A DNA stretch of 32,000 nucleotides from contig CAZXEQ010000001.1 of the NCBI GenBank assembly GCA_964640155.1, forward strand, positions 336,403 through 368,402, given 5' to 3'. The translations under genes and the position numbers were made by a program. The DNA is from an uncultured bacterium (GTDB lineage Bacteria; Auribacterota; JACPWU01). Each line of letters begins with the position of its first letter. The stretch's first letter is position 1. The notes beneath the pieces were generated by a model. The model saw only the letters and a list, made by a program, of their open reading frames with translations. It ran no database searches and had not been told where the DNA came from. This document shows, in pieces, positions 1 to 23,627 of the stretch.

Positions 1-1390
1 ACGTTTCTCCAAAAACTGTCTTGATACGAACCCCAAGATCAAATCTACTGAAAGATTCAGGTGGATTGCCGTCATAAAGCAGATCTTCAAAAATGCTTCT
101 AAAACTTTCTGGATGAGGAACCTCTCCTTCATAATAAGGATTCCCTTCTTTATCAACTCTCACTTCACTGGCCCGTAATTTTCTTCCCCCTTCATTTCCC
201 AAAGGTTCAATGCGAAGAGAAAGTCTATAAAGCATAGCCAAAAGTTTCTTAGCTCTTTCTTCTTTTGGAATATTGAAAAACCAATCTTTTAAAGACGTAC
301 GTTCACTTTCATCCACAATTTTTTCTACAACATAAAATGTTCCAAATTTCTTTCCATTTTGCGGCGGAGTTCTCATAACAAACTCCAAAGCCCCTGTTTT
401 TAAATTAATCACCTGATATGCAAGTGTTCCGTCACTTCCCATGAATGAAACAGGAGCATATCCATTTTTGACAAGTTCTGGATAAAGACTCATCAATTCA
501 TCTCTTTCTTCAGACCCTCTCCCTGCCATTGTTTCAAGAGTTGCTTCGACAAGATGTTGCACTTGAAAAGCTCTGTTGCGATCTGGAGTTGGAGTCGAAA
601 GCCAAGCTATTCCCCTACTTAAGCGTGTGGGAGGAGTTACATCCCACCCCTTCTGATAAAAATCTTTAATGCGCTTAGCAACTCTGGCTCGGAAATCATC
701 TTGGAATTGTCTGTTTGATTCAAAAGCTGTTGGAAGAAATCGTCCAATGATTCTTAATTGTTCTCTTCTATCTTCATTTAAGAATCCTGGCAAAACTTCA
801 AAAGATTTTTGAGCAATTTGAGCATCGACGAATTTTAAAAGATCTTCAAGTGAACGACCTGCCACTCCTTTTCCACCACGATAAGCTAGCTCACCACCAA
901 AATTTCCTTGAGCTTGAGCCATCGCCATTTGAATATCTAAAGCCCAAGCCAGAATATGAATCACTCGTTCAAGCGTAAAATCTTCGGAGATCTCTCCTCT
1001 ACCTTTACTTGCTTCAATTTCAGCCCCAAATCTCTGCCGAATATAAATTTCTGTTATTTCATGCCATTCATAAAAGGCCTGCTGATTTTGTGCAGGATCT
1101 TCATGCAAAGCCTTCTTGGAAACAAATACATAATTCACACCTCCCGCTTGTGCAGCAGGAAAATGAAATGCATTTTTAAGTCCTTTTTTTCTTGCTAATT
1201 TTCCAATCGGATCTTTTGTCTTTTCTGAATCATCATAAATCACAAGCTGATAAGAAATTTCTTTCTCTAATACATTTTGTTTTTTAGCTTCCGCTCGGCC
1301 TTGAGCATTTTTTATAAATGCTTGTACATCTTCCTTAGATACTTTCTGATCATTGTCTTGAGGGCCTGGCTCACCAATGTCTTTAAGGCG
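1..1390 (-). repeat. Protein-level super-repeat R3 (partial, truncated by the window edge)
   Basis: LKDIGEPGP ... NAFH (His 1165) ... YEWHEITEIY (His 1063) ... HILAWALDIQMA (958) ... KSFEVLPGFLNEDR ... KKLLAMLYRLSLRIEPLGNEGGRKLRASEVRVDKEGN. Confidence 0.7.
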
Positions 1391-4300
1391 ATTAACGGGA
1401 GTAGACTTAGATTTCTCAACAAGCCTACCCCAAGCATTGGGATCGATTTCCTGCATGAGATCTCTTAATCGTTCTCCAAAAGCTTTACCATTTCTATCCT
1501 CCATAGCAGCTCTAGACGGTTTGAACATTGCATCTAACGGATCAGACGCAAACAATCTTTGTGTACTCATAGATACTCTTTTTAATCTATCAATCGCAAC
1601 CTCTAGTGGTAGTCCTCGAAACGATATTGTTAGCTTAGGGAACAAAATTTCAAGCCGTTTCCAATCCGCCTCACTAAATATATTCCCATCAATATTGTCA
1701 AATCTACCATGATAGTCTGTACTTTCTCTTCCAAATAAAAATTCTAAAACTTTTAAACAAACTAACTCTTTACCGAGATCACTCCATCCCGTAGAATCTT
1801 TATTCGCATCCTCAGCAGATACTGGTTCTCCATCTGAAGTCATTAAGAGACCTCCTATTCCACCGGGTGAAACTCCAACCTTTCCATGGTAAATTTTGGC
1901 CATTAAGCCAATGATTCTTTTAAACTTTTCCTCACGAGAAATCAAAGTATGCTCTCTCAGCCACTTTGCCCAAACTGGGAGTGGCAATTTACATTCAGGG
2001 CCTTCTATATCAATGACAGCTTGAGGATCTAAAGGTAAAAGAGCATCTCTCACAACACCAAAGATTTCTTCAAATTCCGCAGTAGATGCTTGACGAGTCA
2101 AACGATGACCAATCTGTGTGCCATATATGCTCTCAGAGATAAGTTTTTTTATTATAGGATTACTTCCAAAAAAATCTTTTGCTATATCCGGTAACTTGGA
2201 GAATCCTGTCTCAAAATAGACAGACCAAGAATTTGGTTCTCCCAAAAGAGCATAAAGAATTAAAGTGCGATAGAAACGTGAGATTTTCTGAAAAGGTTTA
2301 AGAAAAACAATTTTTTGAGGATTAAGAACGACTAATATTTTTCCACCTTCGTTCTTAAAAGTAATGTCTTTCCATGGGTCAAAATCTGATAAAGAAAATC
2401 CATCTTTAAACAATTTATCGATTTTAAACATCATTGTATAAAGAACTGTTAGAAATGCTTTATTTCTTTCTTCTTTTCCTTGTGTTGAAAGCAACTCTCT
2501 CCATTCTTCAAAAGTCATTACTTTTTCATCTTTAGATTCTTCTTTTTTAGCTTCTGGCAGAGGTTGGACTTTACCTCCCATAGCTTCCATATCCAACAAA
2601 GCTTTAAAATCCAATCTTTCAAGAATTTTTCTGATAGCCACACTAGGATCTTTCAGCTTTTCAGCAGGAGGAAATAGAATTTGTCCCACAAGAGTAATAA
2701 AGTCTTTATCTTCACCATAAATTCCTATGATTTTTTGCTTAAGAACATCATGTGTTACATTTTCTTTTGGCCAAGAATCTCTTGAACCATAGAGTGTTTG
2801 AAAAAGTAATGAACGAAAGGCTTCTGCAAAAATTGCAGAGTTCGAAAATGACATGCCTGTATTTTCTTGGCGAGGAACAATCTTATTGGGGTTAATAATA
2901 AATTGATCTCCATCAAGGCCTCTTAGAATAATAATATCCGTTAGAGGATCAAAATCTGTCAGTTTGTAACCATTCTCATACAAATGATTTCCTTGAAGTA
3001 TGACGGCATAAAGAAGTGTGGTAAATGCTTTTACTTCTTCTTCCTGAGAGCGATGGACAAATTGCCACCAACGTCCAAGCCTCGGTTGGATCTCTATAGA
3101 GTCAGTTTGTAAAACCCCTGTATAATCTTCTCGAAGATCGGGCCCCATTCTCGATGAAACTACTCTTTGATTGATATGACCTGTTGCAATTTCTATGGTT
3201 AAATAAGCATATACATTTGAATGTCCTTGCTCATACATAGATGGAATTTTTTTAAAAATAAGATAGCCCCGTTGAGAGAGCAATGCATGAACTTTTTTAA
3301 GTGCTGAAGATCCTTTTGCCCCTACTCTTTTCATACTTATTAGAGCTGCTTCTAAAAATTTCTCTGTTTGTTTATCTTGATTCTCTTCTTTCGTTGGTTT
3401 ACGTATTTGAGCAAACCATCCAGCAACCCTATTCTCTTCAGGTCTAGTCCCTTCTCGATAATGCCAAGCCAGCCTTTTCGCTAACATTTCCTGTACAAAT
3501 TGCTCAAACTCAATAAATATTTTTCCCACTTCCACTCCAAAACATCGTGTTGCCCAAGCTTCTTGCATGGACCGATCTTCAGTCAACATCTCAAGGGCAA
3601 GATCAAAGGACATATTGTTAATATAAGTTTCCATAAAACTTTTTAGCTCTTCCATAGATCGAGCTTGAGTAGTCATTCCCCGCATGGGAACAGTACCTAC
3701 GTTATATTGAAAAAGCCCAGGATTTCTCGCCATGCGAAGATCATTTGCCCAAGCCAAAATATGAAAGAGACGCTGAGCCGTATATCCCTTGGGCAATTTT
3801 TTAGCTTTTTCTAAAGCATAAACTTCTTCCCCATACTTCATCTCTGCATAAATTTCAGAGAGCTCATGTTGTTCGTAAAGTGGCCGATGAGCTCCCGCAT
3901 TTTTTGAGACAAAAATATAATAAGTTTTCTTAGCAGGATCAGGATTTGGCAAATGAAAGGCATGATTTAGTTTTTTCTCTCTTGCGATTTGTCCGATAGG
4001 ATCTTGTGTTTTTTCATCATTGTCATAGATCACCACTTGAAACTTAATTTCTACTCCATCCACAAGACATGTAGTTTCAGAACCTGCTCGATTTTGAGCC
4101 TCATCTAAAATAATCTTTTGTTCTTTTTCATTTAAACTTGCCCCATTTCCATGGTATGGACCAGGGTCTTTAAAAGCACCAACGCCTTTTTTCCCCAACA
4201 CTCTCCCAATCAAGCCACTAAACCAACCTGATGAGCTTGACGAACTACCCGAAGTTGTTGGCTCAGGAGGAAGAGATGTGTTGCTATGCACCTGAACCCT

Positions 4301-5722
4301 ATGTTCTGGATCTAGTTCATCGAGCACTCTAAGCAACGATCCTATTTGTGAGAAATAAAGAGGATTTTTAATGGAATCGTCAAATAATTGAACATCGAAA
4401 ATCAATCTTAGAAAATTATCAAAACCGGGAGTCACCTTAAAAAGACGAGCTGCTTGCGCCTGAATTTCAGAAAAAGAAGGATAGTTAGAATGAAATCTCT
4501 CTCCATACAAGGCCCATAATATTAAAGCAGGTAAAGCATTCTGAACAATAGGAGTAAATTCTCCTATAGCGGTTTTATCTTTTGAGCCACGGATGATTTT
4601 CTTTTCCATAATACTAAAAACGATTTTTCCGCCCCGCTCTTCAAAGATGATATCTGTCAACGGATCAAAATCTTGGGATAATTGATACCCGCGTCCTCTT
4701 AATGATTCATCTTCCCTTGCCAACCAATAACAAAGAATGATTAAGAATAGTCCTCTTTGTTTAGGGTCCACAGGCAAAGATGCCCACCACTGACCAAACG
4801 AATTAATTTCACCTACTACATCATCTTCTTCATGAGCAATGTGAATATTTATCTCATTCTTAGTCATTGTTGCTTCAATAACTTTACCTGACTCTAAATC
4901 CATCACCTGATAAATACAGGAATCATTTTCCTCATTGCGGGGAGATACTTGCTTAATAATGGCAAAACCTTGTTCAAGAAATTTGGGAAAAGCTTTTTCA
5001 ACTTTTCCTGCCTCCCTTGAACCAAATTTTTTAGCACTAGCGGTAGCTTTCGCTTTAAATCTCTTGAGCTGTTCTTCTTTTTTTAACTCTTTCTCCCTTC
5101 TATAGTGCTCAACCATTCTTGCTTCAGCCATTTTGATGACTTCACTGTTAAACTCATCGAGCAAAAAAAGTTCATCTCCCATAACATTTTTAGAAAGCTC
5201 ACTTTGATGGAATCTGTCCTCGAGTAATATCTCTAATGCATCGTCAAAAGACATTGTTCCTATTTTTTCTTGCATAAATCGCTTTAAAGCAGCTAAATCT
5301 TGTGCTTGAACAGACATCTTTCTATAAGCAGTAGCTCCTGTACCTTGAGAACTCCCGAAAAGTTCAGGATGTGCAGCCATTCGAACATCATTGGCCCAAG
5401 CTAGAATATGTTTGATCCTCGTCCATGTAAATTCTTTGGGATAGTCTAAATGGCCTTGTTCAAGTAAAGTTTTCAACCATGCAAATTTTATATCAATAAA
5501 AATTTCTGAAAGTTCATGCTGTTCGCAAAGGCCTTGATTGCTGGCATTATCAGAAACGAATACATAATAAGTTCCATCATCATCTTGCAAATGAAAAGCG
5601 TTCTCTAACTTTTCATCCGCAGCTAAATTCCCAATAGTAGGTTCTTTTGCTTTCTTCTCATTTTCATTAAACGCAACTAAGTAATACTCAATAATCTGAC
5701 CATCTATAATGCGTGATCTCAT
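1..5722 (-). CDS. Giant repeat protein, part 2 (second ORF or continuation of part 1), 3-prime partial, at least 1907 codons from ATG 5722
   Basis: The same minus frame stays open from 5860 to position 2 (1953 codons, no in-phase tta/cta/tca on the + strand). First canonical starts after the TGA are TTG 5749 and ATG 5722 (MRSRIIDGQIIEYYLVAFNENE...). The ORF runs off the left edge, ending ...FSRFDLGVRIKTVFGET at position 2. It contains three paralogous super-repeats. The start codon is uncertain. Confidence 0.7.
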   Translation of the reverse strand, partial: MRSRIIDGQIIEYYLVAFNENEKKAKEPTIGNLAADEKLENAFHLQDDDGTYYVFVSDNASNQGLCEQHELSEIFIDIKFAWLKTLLEQGHLDYPKEFTWTRIKHILAWANDVRMAAHPELFGSSQGTGATAYRKMSVQAQDLAALKRFMQEKIGTMSFDDALEILLEDRFHQSELSKNVMGDELFLLDEFNSEVIKMAEARMVEHYRREKELKKEEQLKRFKAKATASAKKFGSREAGKVEKAFPKFLEQGFAIIKQVSPRNEENDSCIYQVMDLESGKVIEATMTKNEINIHIAHEEDDVVGEINSFGQWWASLPVDPKQRGLFLIILCYWLAREDESLRGRGYQLSQDFDPLTDIIFEERGGKIVFSIMEKKIIRGSKDKTAIGEFTPIVQNALPALILWALYGERFHSNYPSFSEIQAQAARLFKVTPGFDNFLRLIFDVQLFDDSIKNPLYFSQIGSLLRVLDELDPEHRVQVHSNTSLPPEPTTSGSSSSSSGWFSGLIGRVLGKKGVGAFKDPGPYHGNGASLNEKEQKIILDEAQNRAGSETTCLVDGVEIKFQVVIYDNDEKTQDPIGQIAREKKLNHAFHLPNPDPAKKTYYIFVSKNAGAHRPLYEQHELSEIYAEMKYGEEVYALEKAKKLPKGYTAQRLFHILAWANDLRMARNPGLFQYNVGTVPMRGMTTQARSMEELKSFMETYINNMSFDLALEMLTEDRSMQEAWATRCFGVEVGKIFIEFEQFVQEMLAKRLAWHYREGTRPEENRVAGWFAQIRKPTKEENQDKQTEKFLEAALISMKRVGAKGSSALKKVHALLSQRGYLIFKKIPSMYEQGHSNVYAYLTIEIATGHINQRVVSSRMGPDLREDYTGVLQTDSIEIQPRLGRWWQFVHRSQEEEVKAFTTLLYAVILQGNHLYENGYKLTDFDPLTDIIILRGLDGDQFIINPNKIVPRQENTGMSFSNSAIFAEAFRSLLFQTLYGSRDSWPKENVTHDVLKQKIIGIYGEDKDFITLVGQILFPPAEKLKDPSVAIRKILERLDFKALLDMEAMGGKVQPLPEAKKEESKDEKVMTFEEWRELLSTQGKEERNKAFLTVLYTMMFKIDKLFKDGFSLSDFDPWKDITFKNEGGKILVVLNPQKIVFLKPFQKISRFYRTLILYALLGEPNSWSVYFETGFSKLPDIAKDFFGSNPIIKKLISESIYGTQIGHRLTRQASTAEFEEIFGVVRDALLPLDPQAVIDIEGPECKLPLPVWAKWLREHTLISREEKFKRIIGLMAKIYHGKVGVSPGGIGGLLMTSDGEPVSAEDANKDSTGWSDLGKELVCLKVLEFLFGRESTDYHGRFDNIDGNIFSEADWKRLEILFPKLTISFRGLPLEVAIDRLKRVSMSTQRLFASDPLDAMFKPSRAAMEDRNGKAFGERLRDLMQEIDPNAWGRLVEKSKSTPVNRLKDIGEPGPQDNDQKVSKEDVQAFIKNAQGRAEAKKQNVLEKEISYQLVIYDDSEKTKDPIGKLARKKGLKNAFHFPAAQAGGVNYVFVSKKALHEDPAQNQQAFYEWHEITEIYIRQRFGAEIEASKGRGEISEDFTLERVIHILAWALDIQMAMAQAQGNFGGELAYRGGKGVAGRSLEDLLKFVDAQIAQKSFEVLPGFLNEDRREQLRIIGRFLPTAFESNRQFQDDFRARVAKRIKDFYQKGWDVTPPTRLSRGIAWLSTPTPDRNRAFQVQHLVEATLETMAGRGSEERDELMSLYPELVKNGYAPVSFMGSDGTLAYQVINLKTGALEFVMRTPPQNGKKFGTFYVVEKIVDESERTSLKDWFFNIPKEERAKKLLAMLYRLSLRIEPLGNEGGRKLRASEVRVDKEGNPYYEGEVPHPESFRSIFEDLLYDGNPPESFSRFDLGVRIKTVFGET
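1391..4180 (-). repeat. Protein-level super-repeat R2 (about 930 aa): X-domain plus two degenerate kinase-like modules plus tail
   Basis: VGAFKDPGPY (4183-4154) ... NAFH (His 3955) ... EQHELSEIY (His 3868) ... HILAWANDLRMA (3763) ... MSFDLALEMLTEDR ... YKLTDFDPLTDIIIL (2956-2945) ... FSLSDFDPWKDITF (2386-2375). Confidence 0.75.
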
Positions 5723-5823
5723 TTCCTTCTTTGAGGAAGCTTTGGCCAATTTAATAAACTGCTGTTTCTGGGCATCTTTTAAAACCTTTTCCCCACGATA
5801 AGCACCTGGATTTTTTAAAGCAC
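4181..5823 (-). repeat. Protein-level super-repeat R1 (about 548 aa): X-domain plus degenerate kinase-like module
   Basis: VGALKNPGAY ... NAFH (His 5593) ... EQHELSEIF (His 5518) ... HILAWANDVRMA (5410) ... MSFDDALEILLEDR ... YQLSQDFDPLTDIIF (4672-4661). Paralogous to R2 and R3 at the same relative positions. Confidence 0.75.
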
Positions 5824-5860
5824 CCACTGGTTCTGGTTGAGGAGTTGACTGGCGAGCCCC

Positions 5861-8800
5861 TTCAAGCAATGTTCGAAGGAGTGGGATCAATGATTCAAGC
5901 ATTTGATTCTCCTTAATCGCTTGCATAAGAGGGCCATCTAAAGCAAAAGGATCAGAGTCAATATGGGTATCAAAATAGATCGAAGATCCTTCAACACTAT
6001 ATAATTTTTTGCCAGTTATTAATTTATATAAAAGAACTCCCACTGAAAAAAGATCGGATGTCCCATAACTTTGCCTCTCTGCTAATTTAGCCATTCCAAA
6101 ATCAATCAAAGCTACTTCATCTATCTCATCATCATATAAAATATTAGCTGGTTTAATATCACTGTGAAAAACTCCAGCCTGATTGGCTAATTGAACAATT
6201 TTAAAAATCCTTCGAAATAAACGATCGACTTGAGAAACGTTTTCAGAAGTCCAGTTCTTAGAAGTTGATCTTCTTAAAGATTCATATAATTTGCTTCTTG
6301 TAATATCTTTTCCCTTAACTTCCATTGCAATGAAATAACCGAAAGAAGAATCTCCTTCTGCATAGTATTTTGGGATACCTTCTTGAACTTTTTGAAGCAT
6401 AACAGCATCATTCCTTACATGTTGATCATGTTCTCTTGATTTAGAAATCTTTAAGGCAATCCGCTTTCCTGTCTGGAAATTTCCTGTCGTTAAATCAATA
6501 GCATCCCAAACTGTAGCAAAAGCCCCACTTCCTAGCTGATTCACAACATAGTATTTACCTGCAACAATCACTCCAGATTGAACTTGCACTACATCTCCTT
6601 GCCCTCGTGTAATATTCGCCAGAAACTGAATTTTTTGATCTAATTTACTTTTGGGATCTAATACATTCACAAAAACGGTCGATAAATCACTATGCCCACC
6701 TAAAATGCCATCCAAAACTTCATCTGCTAAGGCTGCAGCATAGGCTTCAGGTATAGCTGCCACACGGCGATAGATTCCACCTGGCATATAAACGGCATTA
6801 CGACGGGTACCTGTATGAAGATCCCAATGACGGTTATGACCTTCATAGCCTAGGAAATCCAGATTATTGAGAACAACTACAGTGGCTTTTTCCAAGCGAT
6901 ATTCGAAAAATTGAAGAAGGCTTTCTGCATCAATTTTATCTAAAGATTCTTTAGTTCCAGGATAAGTTTCTCTAAAATTTTTATAGTCCTCTACTAAGGC
7001 AAGGTAGGACTGACGTTTCTTTTCTCGTATTTTTGGATCTTTGTCTTTGCTTTCTCGTAACTCTGAAATACTCTCACGAACTAAATTAAGGCGAGTTTCA
7101 ATTTCCTTAAACAAATCTTCTCTTTTCTCTCTAAGAACGGTTTGGGCATTTATAAAATATTCATCATCTTTAGGATCTTCCGTTCTAAAAAACGCTTGAT
7201 CCCCTTCTAACATTCTTTGCTCACCATGTACGACCGTTACCGCTTTATTATTTCCTTTGGTCTGACTCTGTATGCGATAATCAATTCTTTCTTCACGATA
7301 ATCATCCATTCCCACGCGATGAGCTTTGGCTGTTGTAACTGTTTCACTTGTGTCTTTCTTTATTTTGTCTGTTAACATTATAGAAAATGCTTTTGCAATT
7401 TCTCCAGCAACTGAATCTTTATATTTTTCTTCATCATAAACATAATCTCCTCTAAGTTGGTCGAGCTTCTCTTGATCATTTTTCTCTATACATTCTTGAA
7501 TGTACCTTTGAACACGAAGTGGAATAAATTCTTGTCCTCCTGACAAACTCCATCGGATAAAAGCTTCTACTCCATCTACCATTTCAGGATGAACAAAAGT
7601 GAGTCTTTCATCTAACCAAACAGGGGTTTCTCCTTTCTCATATTGCTCTCCCAACTCATGCGCCATCAAAGAAAGTATTTCTTCTGCCTGTGCTTCTCCA
7701 GAGAAACTTTTGATCTTTTCATAATGAGTTTGATTAATAATCACATGTACAATGCCATTTTTCGTCTGGACTTGCCGTGTCGCCTGAACATCTTTGTGAA
7801 GTTTATTGGAAGTGTGAACTTTAACTGTTCCTGATTGGAGAGCTACTTGTAATGCTTTTAAAAGCTCTCGATATTTTTCATGTCTATCTTTTCCATAGGA
7901 AGGAGGTGGTGCTCGATCCTCTAAAATTAATTCAGAATCTGATGTACTTACAATTTTTTCAATATACTTCTCCATCAAAACCACAACCTCTTGTGGTATT
8001 TCAAGCAACGGTTCATTCGTTAAGTCAATCGGCTTACCCGTCGCAGGATCTTTCGGAACCGCATGGTCATCCCCACGAGAACCCACAACTTTAGCCGCCA
8101 TACCAGCAATCTGCTCAACCTGAGACTGTACTCCTCTGTCATTTTGATTTTGAAAACCACTCGCAGGAGAAACAGTACTCACCTCTAAAACACGTGTTGG
8201 CAAAGGCAAAACTGGGATATTTCTAGGATGCTGATAAGGCCCTCCTTGTACTTGTATTTGTAAAGGCGTCTGCACGGTATTTGATATATGAAGATGAGGG
8301 AATGCTCTTTGTATTCTTTCAGGGGTTATTCCTACAAGAATCGTCATGTCATTAAAAATCATTGGAGGGACTCCTACCCCCTCTATCATAGTTGGTGCAT
8401 TCATCCGAGCTTCTGCTTGAAATAGTGTTCCAAATAATACAGATTGATGAGGCCTATGACTGGATTGCAGCGCAGATAAAAAATATCCACTAGCAGACTG
8501 GTCAAAACTACTGACAGAAACAGTGGTTGGAGGCATACCATTTTGCAACAATTGCATTTGTGTAGTTTGAGTAACCAATTGTCCATTAAAGTTATAAGAA
8601 AAACATGAATCATTAATAAAAACAACTTCTTCTAAATCTCCTCTGGCAACCAAGGCTCGTGCCATTTCTTCAGGACTAATATCCGTTTCATCATCAAGCG
8701 CTAATAGCTGAGGCAAGCCATGTCCATTAAAGTAAATAGTGAGGGGTCCTCTGGAATTTCTAATCTCACTTAAAGCTGCTTGCTTATCTTGCCCTCCCTG

Positions 8801-11800
8801 GAAGGGGCGAGAAATAAGGTCTGGTGAAACACCCGAATCTATTTCTAACTCTGTAATTTCAGATGGATCAAATTCTTGTCCTGCTGCAAAAATATTAATC
8901 ACTCTTCTGCCAGGACCAAAAACAACTCTTTGAGATAATCGTCTCCTCTCTTCAGAAATAAGATGAACAACCCTTCCAATATTTTCGGATGTTATTTCAA
9001 TGTTATATCTCCTGAGAAGCCGATAAGCACACAGTGCTATCGAATGTTGACTTTCAATAGACATGTTTCGCGTTATATTTCTAAATGCAGTATCTAAATA
9101 GATTTGATAATGAGGGAGAGGATGATGTACTGCATCTTCAGGCAGAGAAAGTGCTGCTTGGGCTGGAGAAGAAGGTCGTATTAAATTTGCATTTAACTGT
9201 TGAATTCTGCGAAGCGCATGGGCGATAGGAATACAAGCACTTCCTGGAGTATATTCCCTTGTCAGAACTGTTTCTAATGCTACAACTAGACTTGATTGGA
9301 TAAGATCTGGTCTTATTTCACAAAACCTCTCTATTAGCCGTGTGATTTGGCCAATAGCAGATGTATAAATCCTTCCATCAGATGTGTTATCTGGTAAATA
9401 TCGGTTTAAGAATCTCTCAAGAATTGCAATGTCATTTGCTTGAAACAGTTCTGGACGAGTCCTTCCAAAAGAGCCTAGAAGAAAGACGCCTGCATTTGCA
9501 TAAACTCCATCTTCTTGATTTGGTAAAGTAAAAATGGTCATCATAGAGCGAAATAGACTGGGCGTAAGCCAGGCTTGAGGGATAGCTCCCTCCCGAACTG
9601 AATATCTAAAAAACCTTGGAATCATTGCTAACACTTCTAATGCTCTTTTCCTAAGCATATGAGGAACAAAGGCAGAACTCGTATTTTGAATAAATCGCTG
9701 CAATCGAAGCATATCTTCTTCTCTAAAATTCTCTGCCCCACCTCTAACTGCATCTCTTCCTTCAACGTCCACTCTCCTAGCAATATCACCAAGCAAAGTC
9801 ATTCCTCTATGATATTCCTCCCCGTCTTGTTGTGAAATTTCTCCTGAGGATTGAATTGCAATAGAAGGTCTAAAACAAGCGCCTAAAGACAAAATTAATG
9901 CCATCCACCATGACGAAAGAAATCCAACACGAGGAGGTCGAGGCAATACACGAGATCTATCCTGTTCAGATTGTTTTTTAACCCACACTTGAGCCAACTC
10001 CACAAGCCCAGGTTGATTTTCACCATAACGTTGGATAAGGTCTTGTGTAATCTCCGCAGCATCACTTGTTGTTCCTCTTAACTCCTCAAGTTCTGCAAAA
10101 AATTGTGTAACGATGGTATTGGGATGTGCTGTTTTGAGGGATTCAATTAAACGGTCTATATCTTCTAGCTTTAATTTCTCGAATGCTTTAGCCCAATCAT
10201 TCAATGTATTTCTGATTACGCCTTGTGCACTCATCCACATACTTACAAGAATTTCTTCATCCTTTTGTGTGTATTCTTCACCTGCTATAATTTTTTTGAT
10301 GGTTCCACAGAAAGCTGCAGGTATGAGTGTCCATTTCCCATCTTCTGTTCTTTCATGACTTGCTAGTTTTTTCTGAGAAAATTCTATATTTTCAAAGTCA
10401 TAAGGACCTTGCATGCGTTTTTCATAAATATTTTCATCTACTTTGCCATGCATGTTGGGGATCACAACTGCATAAGATATTCCCTTTTCGTCTAAAATTT
10501 TTTCAATGCCTTCGGTGTGAAAGCCACCGGTTACTAAAACTGTAGTTCGTATCTCGTAATTCGTATTTCGTAAAACCACTTGTTCTTCTATACTTCCTGC
10601 TTCCTGTCTCCTGCTTCGTGCGTCTATTTGCTTTAACGCATTTTCCGCCATAACTCGGTCTCGAGCCAAGGCTAGATCATAAAAGTGAAGCGATTCCTGG
10701 ATGAGGAAGCTGATATTGTTCGAGCTTGTATAAGCACCTTCCTGCTGAGCACTTCTCGACTTCGCTTCGCTGCGCTCGAAGAATATGAGTGGTTTCTGCC
10801 CAATATCAATACTGTTCGAGCCTAGTCGAGAACTCATATATTTTTTTATATTCTCCAGCCCACTTCTCGTCGCTTTCAGCGCTATCAAATCCTTAATCAA
10901 TCCCCACTCTCTTACCATACGTTCTTCTTGAATTACGTTGTGGGCTTTTGAAAGCTCTAGCATCAAAGTATTGATCTTTTGCTCTAGCTCTTCATAGATA
11001 GATTCTGATTTAAGATCTTCTTGATGCAGCTGAAGCTTGTAGTAATGAGAAAGTCCTGGATAGTTTTCTTCTAAGGATAATCCATTTTTTTCATAAGCCT
11101 CTTTCAAATGAGTCAAATATTCCAATATTCCCATTCGACCTAATCGATATTCCAAACTCCATTTCACTATTGTTTTAAGTTCTTCATTTTTGAGCCGATG
11201 ACTTAATTCATCTAAAAGCTTTTTCAAGTCCGATTGAATTGTTTCACTTTGTATGGCTTTAGAAGTTTTAAAAATTTCGAGCATTTGCTCTAAACTCCCA
11301 TCCAGCTTTTGCCCATGCTTTTGTAGTAAGACCTTTAATTGCATTAATGCTTCGTCTAATTTTAGCTCTCCTTCTTTAAGTTGATTTTGAAGGTTTAAAA
11401 GCTCTTTCATTTCTTTAGTGTAGTTCTTTTCTATGATGTTTTTGATTTGTTCATCAATTTTGTTTATTTCAGAAGAAAGTTCTTTGGACAGTCTACGTAC
11501 TTTTAAAAAAGATTTTAAATTCTCAATATAAAGATCTCTCTTTTCTACTCCGTACAGGTCAAGCGAGTCCTGAAACCCTGAACGCAATGCCGCATATTCA
11601 GCTCCGGTGAGATATCCCTCTTTTAGAAATTGCAAGCCTACTTTGTCTCGAACTTTATGATCTGGAAAAGCCTTCAAAAGTTCTAAATCAAATTCCCCTT
11701 CTGCTCCTTCCATAAAAACATCTTTGAGGCCAAGTTTCTGCTGAAATACTTCCAAAGTTTTAGCAATGTTGATTTGGGCTTCTTCCTGACAATGCAAATC

Positions 11801-12049
11801 CTGAATGAGAATGATTAGAGAATCTTTCTTCTCTCCTTCTTTGATTTTGGAAAGGGTAGCACCTGAAAGCTTCAACTGTTTCAGTTGATCTAAAACTGAG
11901 AGGTTTTTAAGTGTAGATGATGATGAAGCCGCTGAAGAAAGAACCTCTGCCATCGATTGATGGTCTGGGAAAATACAAACAAGAGAGAAAATAAAGACGA
12001 AAACAATCCGACATAATTTTAATAAGCAAGCGTTCATTAATCTGGACAT
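5861..12049 (-). CDS. Giant multidomain protein, part 1 (2062 codons, ATG 12049 to in-frame TGA 5863-5861): signal anchor, coiled-coil-rich region, internal TM, caspase-like module, Ser/Thr kinase-like domain
   Basis: Hand scan of the minus frame whose codon first base is 1 mod 3. Upstream stop is TAA 12064-12062, first ATG is 12049 (second ATG 12037), and there is no stop until TGA 5863-5861. Translation starts MSRLMNACLLKLCRIVFVFIFSLVCIFPDHQSMAEV. AAGGA abuts ATG 12049 and lies 12 nt before ATG 12037, so the exact start is uncertain. Kinase and caspase-like motifs are in frame (separate entries). Absent from the supplied ORF track. Confidence 0.8.
5890..6560 (-). other. Hanks-type Ser/Thr protein-kinase-like domain
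   Basis: YYVVNQLGSGAFATVW (G-loop, 6532-6506), KRIALK (Lys codon 6451-6449), VFHSDIKPANIL (6166-6137), LIDFG (DFG 6103-6095), SDLFSVGVLLYKLITG. The HxD Asp and the DFG Asp are 19 residues apart. There is no APE motif and only about 12 residues between DFG and the DxFSxG helix. Confidence 0.8.
8560..8935 (-). other. Clan-CD (caspase/legumain-like) cysteine-peptidase-like module
   Basis: Hydrophobic strand RRVINIFAAG, then PLTIYFNGHG (His codon 8722-8720). 39 residues later comes EEVVFINDSCFS (Cys codon 8605-8603). A hydrophobic strand followed by His-Gly, then about 40 aa, then a hydrophobic strand followed by Cys, is the clan CD catalytic-dyad layout. Confidence 0.45.
9872..9928 (-). other. 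Predicted internal transmembrane helix of the giant protein (about aa 708-726)
   Basis: RSRVLPRPPR followed by a 19-residue hydrophobic segment VGFLSSWWMALILSLGACF, then RPSIAIQSSGE. Confidence 0.45.
10545..10620. repeat. Two imperfect tandem heptamer arrays inside the giant ORF
   Basis: 10545-10572 reads GTTCGTA TCTCGTA ATTCGTA TTTCGTA. 10593-10620 reads CTTCCTG CTTCCTG TCTCCTG CTTCGTG. On the minus strand they are translated as ...RSRRQEAGSIEEQVVLRNTNYEIRTT... Confidence 0.7.
11945..12049 (-). other. N-terminal signal peptide or signal-anchor of the giant protein
   Basis: Basic n-region (MSRLMNACLLKLCR) followed by a hydrophobic run IVFVFIFSLVCIF, then PDHQSMA-EV. Confidence 0.5.
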
Positions 12050-22451: not shown

Positions 22452-23564
22452 CTATTTTGCTCTAAAATGATTTTTCATCTTAAACAATTTTTTTCTCACC
22501 AAAATGCTTAAAATAGAAAGACTGGATCCAAAAATCAGCCAAAAAAGAGAACGAGGAAGCCACTCCGAAAAAACTTCAAAAAATCTTGTATATAAATCAA
22601 TCACTAAAAAGACAACTCCAAAATTAAAAAACAATCTTCTTTCCTGCCTTATTCCTAACCACATAAAAAAAATACATATCCCAGTCATCAAAACAATAAA
22701 CCAAATAGGACTGATGTCGGGCCCTTTACTCCAAACCCACTCATGATCAAAGTTATAGCCCCAAATGGATAGAATCAATAGTGCATTAAACAGAGTTATA
22801 CATCCCACAACTTCAAAGGGTTGCTTTAAATAGGCCTTCCCATACCTGCCCACCCAATGCCCTATACAAATGAATAACCCTCCAATGGGTAAAAAGAGGA
22901 GAGGATCTTTCATATAGAGCCAATAACAACCCATTCCATAACCTGTTGCGCCTCCTAACCAATTTAAAAGTCCAAATAAACCTACATACATGAGGGTTTT
23001 AAAACTTTTTTGATAGCTGACACACAAAGTTATAAATGAAAACACGCATAGCGAAGAGCGAACCATATCCTGATGGAACAACCAAACAGGAATTGAAAAA
23101 ATAGTGTAGGCTAAGATAATTAAAGAAAGAATCAATAAACCTTTGGCATTTACTTCTTTCTTTTGTCTATACATTAGGGAAAAAGAAGCCACCGTTAATA
23201 AACTCATGAATATTGACTTTACCCATCCAGGGGAATTCAAAAGAAGGTAAAATATTTTTCTGATAAATCCGAAGTTAAAATATTTCCAAATTTGATAATC
23301 TGAAACAAAAAAACTTATTCCTGTCACCACTGCTACAATTCCAAACCATTCCAAATTCTTCTTCCAACGTTTCAGTTTAATTTCTTGCTGCTTTAACTCA
23401 ATCAACTCTTCAATGCGATTAACCTGGCTTGCGTAATATTTCTTAATTTCTTGAACATCTTGCATACGCAAAGAAATATTTTCAAAGTCGCTCACCATAA
23501 ATTGATACTGGATCAACTTTTTCTTTAATTCTTTAAGCTTTAGGTTTTGAAATTCTATGTTCAT
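22452..23564 (-). CDS. Polytopic membrane protein with an N-terminal coiled-coil, function unknown
   Basis: About 75 aa of heptad-like charged sequence (QNLKLKELKKKLIQYQ...IEELIELKQQEIKLKRWKK), then roughly 9-10 hydrophobic segments. The ORF track starts at GTG 23582. I prefer ATG 23564, which has GGAGGA 10 nt upstream. Confidence 0.7.
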   Translation of the reverse strand: MNIEFQNLKLKELKKKLIQYQFMVSDFENISLRMQDVQEIKKYYASQVNRIEELIELKQQEIKLKRWKKNLEWFGIVAVVTGISFFVSDYQIWKYFNFGFIRKIFYLLLNSPGWVKSIFMSLLTVASFSLMYRQKKEVNAKGLLILSLIILAYTIFSIPVWLFHQDMVRSSLCVFSFITLCVSYQKSFKTLMYVGLFGLLNWLGGATGYGMGCYWLYMKDPLLFLPIGGLFICIGHWVGRYGKAYLKQPFEVVGCITLFNALLILSIWGYNFDHEWVWSKGPDISPIWFIVLMTGICIFFMWLGIRQERRLFFNFGVVFLVIDLYTRFFEVFSEWLPRSLFWLIFGSSLSILSILVRKKLFKMKNHFRAK

Positions 23565-23627
23565 AAGGATTGTATCCTCCACATCAAAATATTTAGACTC
23601 TCATAGCAGAGTTTAGAATAAATTTAT

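Follow-up and report, generated by a model that had tools for sequence, protein, structure and literature searches.

Can repeated segments of a giant bacterial protein that no domain model recognizes be decayed protein kinases, and what has each of them kept? The question arises from a stretch of 32,000 nucleotides of an uncultured bacterium of the Auribacterota (lineage JACPWU01; assembly GCA_964640155.1, contig CAZXEQ010000001.1, positions 336,403 to 368,402), referred to here as the window. Between positions 2 and 12061 its minus strand is one uninterrupted open frame with the first ATG at 12049, and the resulting open reading frame (ORF; 2-12049) encodes the first 4,016 of 5,549 residues of a giant protein. 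The product has the same sequence as residues 1-4016 of a 5,549-residue database protein, which an exhaustive HMMER search of a representative protein library retrieved as a single NCBI record on a 621-kb contig; therefore, the gene runs about 4.6 kb beyond the window start, where its C-terminus lies. The first-pass annotation of this DNA had described four segments of the protein, situated downstream of a genuine kinase, as an array of pseudokinase-type modules. Here we examine these segments, termed B modules, together with a second repeated domain, termed A, with which they alternate. All features of the protein are on the minus strand.

Four segments are copies of one module

The peptides quoted in the first-pass annotation are all present in one minus-strand frame, with the motif DFDP at 4661-4672, 2945-2956 and 2375-2386 and the fourth copy (KKLLAMLYRLSL...) at 215-250, running off the window start. 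The four segments are homologous copies of a single module of about 250 amino acid residues. Module B1 occupies positions 4289-5029 (residues 2341-2587), B2 positions 2588-3334 (residues 2906-3154), B3 positions 2009-2587 (residues 3155-3347) and B4 positions 2-529 (residues 3841-4016 in the window, reaching residue ~4101 beyond it). Fragment BLASTP comparisons within the protein yielded E-values of 7.6e-8 for B1 and B2 (over 116 residues), 1.1e-7 for B1 and B3 and 8.5e-12 for B2 and B3, and BLAST matched B4 to the N-lobe and alphaE of B1 with an E-value of 5e-5 and to alphaF of B2 with an E-value of 0.01. The segments are thus alike beyond chance, as had been suggested by eye. B1 and B2 are ~21% identical, and outside the best motif the modules share 20-30% of their residues. 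At the DNA level the repeats match only in short stretches that encode conserved motifs, the DFDP stretch constituting repeat family D5, and therefore the duplications must be old. The alternative, that the similarity reflects chance or composition and that there is no repeated module, has a single point in its favor, the weak matches of the fourth copy to B2 and B3 (E-values of 0.007-0.01). It is already refuted by the pairwise E-values (1e-7 to 1e-12 among B1-B3, 5e-5 for B1 and B4), by an A-B order that recurs three times and by the conservation of B1 in an orthologue (see below), and we assign it a negligible probability.

The copies have retained different parts of the module. Its best-conserved stretch is DFDP[LW][TK]DI, which corresponds to an acidic relic of the catalytic loop, and the alphaF helix LLxxLYG is kept as well. 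The motifs of an active kinase, namely GxGxxG, the beta3 Lys with the alphaC Glu, HRDxKxxN and DFG, are absent from the B modules in both alignments and models. The beta1-beta2 loop reads SPRNEENDS in B1, PSMYEQGHS in B2 and GSDGT in B4, none of which is a Gly-rich loop; the alignments contain no conserved Lys/Arg column in beta3; and between beta3 and beta4 the models of B1 and B2 show no alphaC helix. In the catalytic loop of B1-B3, the first Asp of DFDP stands at the position of the HRD Asp, the Lys is replaced by Asp and the Asn by Thr or Lys. This agrees with the earlier claim that the HRD-type Asp is kept and the Lys and Asn are lost; B4 departs from it, having lost the whole loop, DFDP included. 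Similarly, the reported substitution of DFG by NPx holds for B2 (NPN) and B3 (NPQ); B1 has MEK at this position, and in B4 the entire stretch is gone. B3 matches the B profile only at positions 44-250 of the hidden Markov model (HMM), the C-terminal four fifths, and is regarded as a C-lobe-only half module because the N-terminal beta-strands are absent. In B4, the most decayed copy, a deletion has removed the DFDP loop together with beta7 and beta8, the two strands after it; the N-terminal half and helices like alphaE and alphaF have been retained.

A genuine kinase and a second repeated domain

The kinase upstream of the B modules is genuine. It is the sole Pfam domain found in the giant protein, a canonical Ser/Thr protein kinase at positions 5861-6562 (residues ~1830-2063) that is recognized by Pfam Pkinase (E-value of 1.2e-18 at residues 1834-1994), by NCBIfam kinase models and by BLAST. 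It carries the G-loop GSGAFATV, IALK, HSDIKPAN and DFG, and it scores weakly with the NCBIfam LanL/LanKC models.

Between the kinase and the B modules, and again among the latter, lies a second repeated domain of ~245 residues. This domain, A, is better conserved than B (E-values down to 1e-29 in self-comparison), and its copies were delineated by internal repeats and an A HMM: A1 at positions 5093-5830 (residues 2074-2319, with HELSE...HILAWAND), A2 at 3407-4183 (residues 2623-2881) and A3 at 602-1399 (residues 3551-3816). The resulting domain order is kinase - A1 - B1 - A2 - B2 - B3 - X - A3 - B4, where X is an unassigned stretch of ~200 residues. In six copies of A from three proteins, F, HExxE, R, H and W are invariant. 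In the structural model of the A2+B2 unit described below, HExxE is placed on a long helix right after a beta-strand and the invariant His on the next helix, a layout reminiscent of zincin-type metal sites; a zincin-like site is possible, unproven. Domain A has no Pfam match and no PDB sequence-profile match, and a sub-threshold Pfam/NCBIfam match to DUF3943 in A2 was taken as chance. No PDB structural match to the A2+B2 model outranks the kinase matches, and BFVD yielded only faint “PolyVal metallopeptidase” and “peptidase” matches (E ~1, probability ≤ 0.2). Judged by its sequence, A is a new domain (HExxE...H).

Sequence searches and predicted structures of B

Even at E ≤ 10, Pfam did not match any of the B modules, and whole-protein scans with Pfam and NCBIfam assigned neither Pkinase nor any other family of the protein-kinase-like clan to the B modules (the families considered were Pkinase, APH, ABC1, RIO, Kdo, HipA, CotH, Fam20 and SelO). 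No kinase was retrieved when the B profile was used for hmmsearch of all PDB sequences, or when a profile of A and B was used for the exhaustive HMMER search of 1.84 billion representatives. Comparisons of the B profile by hhalign gave non-significant E-values of 0.4 with the protein's own kinase, 0.1 with a two-kinase profile and 0.15 with a five-kinase profile, which combined the two family kinases with textbook sequences of PKA, PknB and CDK2; the reversed-sequence control for the last of these scored 0.52. SelO and SidJ showed no sequence or profile relationship to B in Pfam and PDB searches, and word-indexed homology searches with residues 2078-4020, the B alignment or the A alignment as query produced no matches. 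The non-significant hhalign alignments are colinear and place DFDP opposite D-[IL]-K-P, the register that the structural reading below also gives. Their best local piece sets “GyaiiXXv...YqvmXleTGk” against kinase beta1/G-loop/beta2/beta3, and the extended alignment sets “Gy.Ls.DfDPltDIif” against “gv.h.DlKP.Nil.d”. The by-eye alignment of the segments to the kinase is therefore reproduced in its register and order, and at E-values of 0.1-0.4 it gains no statistical support. Neither Pfam nor PDB searches assigned the B segments to an unrelated family.

Predicted structures do link B to kinases, at marginal scores. B1 was modelled with AlphaFold2 from a 4-row alignment of internal copies (predicted local distance difference test, pLDDT, 70.4; predicted template modelling score 0.57), and B2 was modelled within the A2+B2 unit from a 7-row alignment (pLDDT 76.2 overall, ~85-93 in the A part and ~75-86 in the B2 core). 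Both models show the same order of elements: beta1-beta4, a short helix, a long alphaE, beta6, the DFDP loop, beta7, beta8, alphaF and alphaG-I, with three to four further helices following the alphaF-like helix. As modelled, this is the kinase order minus alphaC. In a Foldseek search of the PDB, the check that the first-pass annotation had proposed, the top 50 matches to the B1 model were all protein kinases or pseudokinases, the best being the CurKC kinase domain (7wj7; E-value of 0.011, probability 0.97, ~245 aligned columns), and others among them being DAPK1/3, CK1, CK2, CaMKII and the PAN3 pseudokinase. The same was true for all of the top 50 matches to the A2+B2 model, which were led by CK1delta (4kb8; E-value of 0.004, probability 1.00) and included the PEAK3 pseudokinase (8dp5; E-value of 0.023), Aurora A, PINK1 and the bacterial kinases PknG and YabT. 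SelO and SidJ were absent from the top PDB matches of both models. When B2 was searched against BFVD, Ser/Thr kinases of giant viruses made up most of the higher-probability matches, the best being a Pithovirus Ser/Thr kinase (E-value of 0.011).

Several of these results weigh against a kinase fold. In addition to the absence of any Pfam, PDB or HMMER match to kinases and the non-significant hhalign scores, the PDB Foldseek scores are marginal (E-values of 0.004-0.09, none ≤ 0.001), and with template modelling (TM) scores of 0.2-0.39 and root-mean-square deviations of 9-16 Å the global superposition is poor. Both models were built from very shallow alignments of internal repeats (4-7 sequences) that share rows, AlphaFold may have a bias for so common a fold, and without a predicted alphaC helix the N-lobe is atypical. 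Taken at face value, these points would favor a different explanation: B would be a lineage-specific alpha+beta domain unrelated to kinases, and its kinase matches an artefact of weak models and a kinase-rich PDB. Every sequence-level test being negative, Foldseek E-values staying at or above 0.004 and TM scores at or below 0.39, the small number of sequences behind the models and the missing alphaC helix all speak for this explanation. However, two modules that are only ~21% identical each gave nothing except kinases and pseudokinases among their top 50 matches, with alignments of ~240-300 columns that cover the full domain. Kinases also dominate the BFVD matches above a probability of ~0.6, yet they are not over-represented in that database; the hhalign alignments, though non-significant, are colinear and keep the same register; and a homologous protein has a true kinase at the equivalent position (see below). 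We consider an origin of B unrelated to kinases quite unlikely. For B, a kinase fold is probable, not proven, as predicted by these models.

Relatives and conservation

The exhaustive search with the A+B profile returned the protein itself plus three weak matches, all through module A. One of the three, a helical-repeat protein, is probably spurious. Across billions of proteins, A is found in only three and B in the giant protein alone. Just one distant relative has a similar build, a 2,688-residue protein from a Chlamydiota metagenome-assembled genome (MAG), annotated as a Ser/Thr kinase (MBI1884639.1). Its order is A (1355-1605) - Pkinase (1663-1950, E-value of 1.6e-32) - weak A' (~2071) - A (2247-2484), and its kinase matches the kinase of the giant protein in BLAST with an E-value of 2e-7. 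In this homologue the kinase directly follows A, and therefore a real kinase fills the slot that B holds in the giant protein. With B written as K', the giant protein becomes K-A-K'-A-K'-K'-x-A-K', which fits a tandem duplication of a kinase/A cassette with decay of the extra kinases. Another match is a 719-residue protein, which combines a signal peptide with a single A module and matches HATPase_c faintly; domain A may habitually accompany ATP-binding folds.

A genome scan found only one related locus, a 1,987-bp orthologous contig that is 56% identical and carries both A and B on this ~2-kb fragment; it comes from a MAG of Candidatus Auribacterota, the nearest relative. Metagenome scans revealed no further relatives. 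Identity to the Auribacterota contig within B1 amounts to 67% for the N-lobe, 48% for the C-lobe core and 53% for the tail; the values are 56% for A1 and 23% for the Ser-rich linker between units. Both DFDPLTDIIF and LW.LYG are unchanged. B1 is thus as conserved as its neighbors and far more so than the linker, and B is maintained rather than being a decaying spacer. By this comparison, the features that B has kept are under purifying selection.

Possible role of the B modules

A pseudokinase is defined as a kinase fold that lacks at least one of the VAIK Lys, the HRD Asp and the DFG Asp (PMC13519141). The half of this definition that concerns loss of motifs applies to B; for the half that concerns the fold, the predicted structures have marginal scores, with support from the position of the kinase in the Chlamydiota homologue. 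The pseudokinase array of the first-pass annotation is partly borne out by the kinase-like models, and neither outcome that it had named as refuting came about; it has to be amended in its layout: B alternates with A, B3 is reduced to a C-lobe, and B4 lacks the loop.

With the Gly-rich loop, beta3 Lys, alphaC, catalytic Lys and Asn, and DFG all missing, canonical ATP binding and phosphotransfer by B appear very unlikely. Given that the features it did keep seem to be under purifying selection, B would most likely serve as a set of non-catalytic docking or regulatory modules. We think it fairly probable that the B modules are strongly decayed kinase-fold copies with such a function, and that they arose from duplication of a kinase+A cassette. 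According to this scenario, the cassette, which survives intact in the Chlamydiota homologue, would have been duplicated in tandem. The extra kinase copies would then have lost all of the elements of ATP binding and phosphotransfer listed above, keeping the fold, the DFDP[LW][TK]DI relic and the alphaF LLxxLYG. As scaffolds, they may dock or regulate a partner, with the neighboring A domains, the one active kinase and a target protein as candidates, and their role would resemble that of JAK JH2, the GCN2 pseudokinase and plant tandem kinase-pseudokinase proteins (TKPs).

The strict conservation of DFDPxxD could also mean a catalytic site that was retained or newly formed, which weighs against a purely non-catalytic role. 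B would then have the kinase fold and be an active non-canonical enzyme, with DFDPxxD and a conserved Lys after beta8 (xxKI[IV]) as a rebuilt site that binds nucleotide and metal differently; the substrate of B might be the adjacent A or a target protein. In line with this possibility, DFDP[LW][TK]DI is the best-conserved stretch of B, unchanged in the related Auribacterota locus and visible even as a DNA repeat, and the pairing of A and B is repeated three times. There are documented cases of motif-poor kinase-fold proteins with other chemistry, such as AMPylation by SelO and glutamylation by Legionella SidJ (PMC13519141). On the other hand, without the Gly-rich loop, a beta3 Lys/Arg column and alphaC, no obvious nucleotide pocket is left, and activity is hard to reconcile as a general property of B with the retention of B4 after deletion of the whole motif region or with the absence of an N-lobe from B3. 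An active B is, in our judgment, unlikely, and we retain decayed, non-catalytic copies as the preferred reading. A related and improbable possibility is that the A-B cassette forms a new two-domain enzymatic unit, in which B either has a rebuilt DFDPxxD site with non-phosphotransfer chemistry or allosterically switches the adjacent HExxE...H metallo-domain, with three copies of the cassette in a giant exported effector from an uncultivated bacterium of the Planctomycetota-Verrucomicrobiota-Chlamydiota (PVC) group. If true, this would add to the two new domain families a new bacterial coupling of pseudokinase and enzyme.

Other regions of the protein and genomic context

The hydrophobic N-terminus of the giant protein (residues 3-33) indicates an export signal or membrane anchor, and the protein is predicted to be exported or membrane-anchored. 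A second, weaker hydrophobic segment is found at positions 9872-9928 (residues 708-726, sequence VGFLSSWWMALILSLGACF). As a membrane-spanning segment, it would leave the kinase and the A-B region in the cytoplasm and residues 34-707 outside, a receptor-like topology. In the Chlamydiota homologue and the 719-residue protein, the N-terminal hydrophobic segment is the sole one.

Just past the signal or anchor, an N-terminal domain of ~540 residues (positions 10403-12031, residues 7-549) is shared with the Chlamydiota homologue (BLAST E-value of 3e-23). It has conserved “LIQD.H” and “GG[FY]HT.GI” motifs and belongs to no Pfam family; the motifs may resemble those of the TraB/Tiki/ChaN type. A faint match to Peptidase_C13 (legumain/caspase-type; E-values of 0.02-0.06, below threshold) is located at positions 8576-8743 (residues 1103-1158) and spans “YFNGHG ... 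INDSCFS”, a possible His/Cys dyad. Upstream of the kinase, “HELGE” at positions 7646-7660 (residues 1464-1468) is a further HExxE in a zincin-like strand-helix pattern, preceded by the strand-like “GIVHVIINQ” and by “ILSLMA”; the module-A HMM does not pick it up. The stretch X, between B3 and A3 (positions 1400-2008, residues 3348-3550), resembles a kinase C-lobe by eye (WSDLGKELVCLKVLEFLFG; RLRDLMQEIDP). The idea that it is a fifth kinase C-lobe gains no support from the B HMM or hhalign, which recognize it no further than the last helix. Past the window, residues 4675-5450 of the database protein contain two repeats of ~190 residues with an ERHRWRSENNY motif and four repeats of ~100 residues with GVxFFKR...VWAF..., none of which matches Pfam.

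The neighbors of the giant gene are ordinary chromosomal genes of Gram-negative bacteria: lptF/G, ahcY, metK, ptsI, hprK, hpf, lptB/A/C and kdsA/B/C/D. A lanthipeptide synthetase context was considered and dropped because these neighbors are housekeeping genes of lipopolysaccharide, phosphotransferase system and S-adenosylmethionine metabolism. A 376-residue ORF between lptB and hpf (positions 22452-23582, minus strand) has no Pfam family, its best match being TMEM43 with an E-value of 0.01; in many Gram-negative bacteria, rpoN occupies the position between lptB and hpf. No Rfam family was found in the window. An independent assembly of the giant-gene locus is available as a 33.5-kb Logan contig (SRR8893623), which stops ~300 bp beyond the comF-like gene adjoining the giant gene and whose called genes include no part of the latter.

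Discussion

The closest parallels to the giant protein are the tandem kinase-pseudokinases, such as JAK (JH1/JH2), GCN2 and plant TKPs, where a competent kinase and motif-poor copies of the kinase fold likewise reside in one chain. Tandem pseudokinase domains are regarded as products of internal duplication that serve as regulators or as docking or decoy modules (PMC13519141). These examples come from eukaryotes, each kinase has one pseudokinase (a few in TKPs), and Pkinase profiles still recognize the pseudokinase domains. In contrast, the giant protein has four copies, one of them a half module and another without the loop, that no profile recognizes, and they are interleaved with an unrelated repeated domain in a 5,549-residue bacterial protein with an export signal.

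Legionella SidJ and SelO/YdiU resemble B in being bacterial, in having a kinase fold and in the degeneration of their canonical motifs, and they too were detected mainly by structure or by sensitive fold recognition (PMC13519141). Unlike B, which has no recognizable pocket-forming motifs, they keep the nucleotide pocket and catalytic residues, and they are single domains. CurKC, the minimal kinase of a class III/IV lanthipeptide synthetase, is the best structural match to B1 and has a similar domain length; however, the giant protein has no lyase or cyclase domains and no lanthipeptide gene context, and B lacks the catalytic residues.

Giant proteins of PVC-related lineages are reportedly the topic of a 2023 bioRxiv preprint. 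In its size (more than 5,000 residues), its largely unannotated sequence and its N-terminal signal or transmembrane segment, the protein described here, from a PVC-type bacterium, is similar to giant surface or secreted proteins of the PVC group and Omnitrophota. One study discusses such proteins of uncultivated PVC-related lineages as interaction or predation factors with carbohydrate-binding, carbohydrate-degradation and toxin-like domains, and in the passages considered a kinase with a pseudokinase/HExxE array is unmentioned (PMC12057145). Already known, then, are the combination of kinase and pseudokinase in one chain and giant dark proteins in PVC-related candidate phyla. New are a four-copy series of degeneration in a bacterium, a divergence beyond all current profiles and the interleaving with an undescribed HExxE...H domain.

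The present analysis defines two unannotated domain families, A and B, and offers an initial clue to the function of a giant “dark” protein from a candidate phylum. That A is repeatedly paired with a kinase or a kinase relic in two distant lineages suggests that they are functionally coupled. If the kinase fold of B holds, one active kinase in a bacterial protein would be accompanied by four kinase-fold copies at advancing stages of decay, well past the detection range of current kinase profiles. Two copies with the relic, one reduced to a C-lobe and one without the loop would then constitute a natural series of pseudokinase decay after internal duplication.

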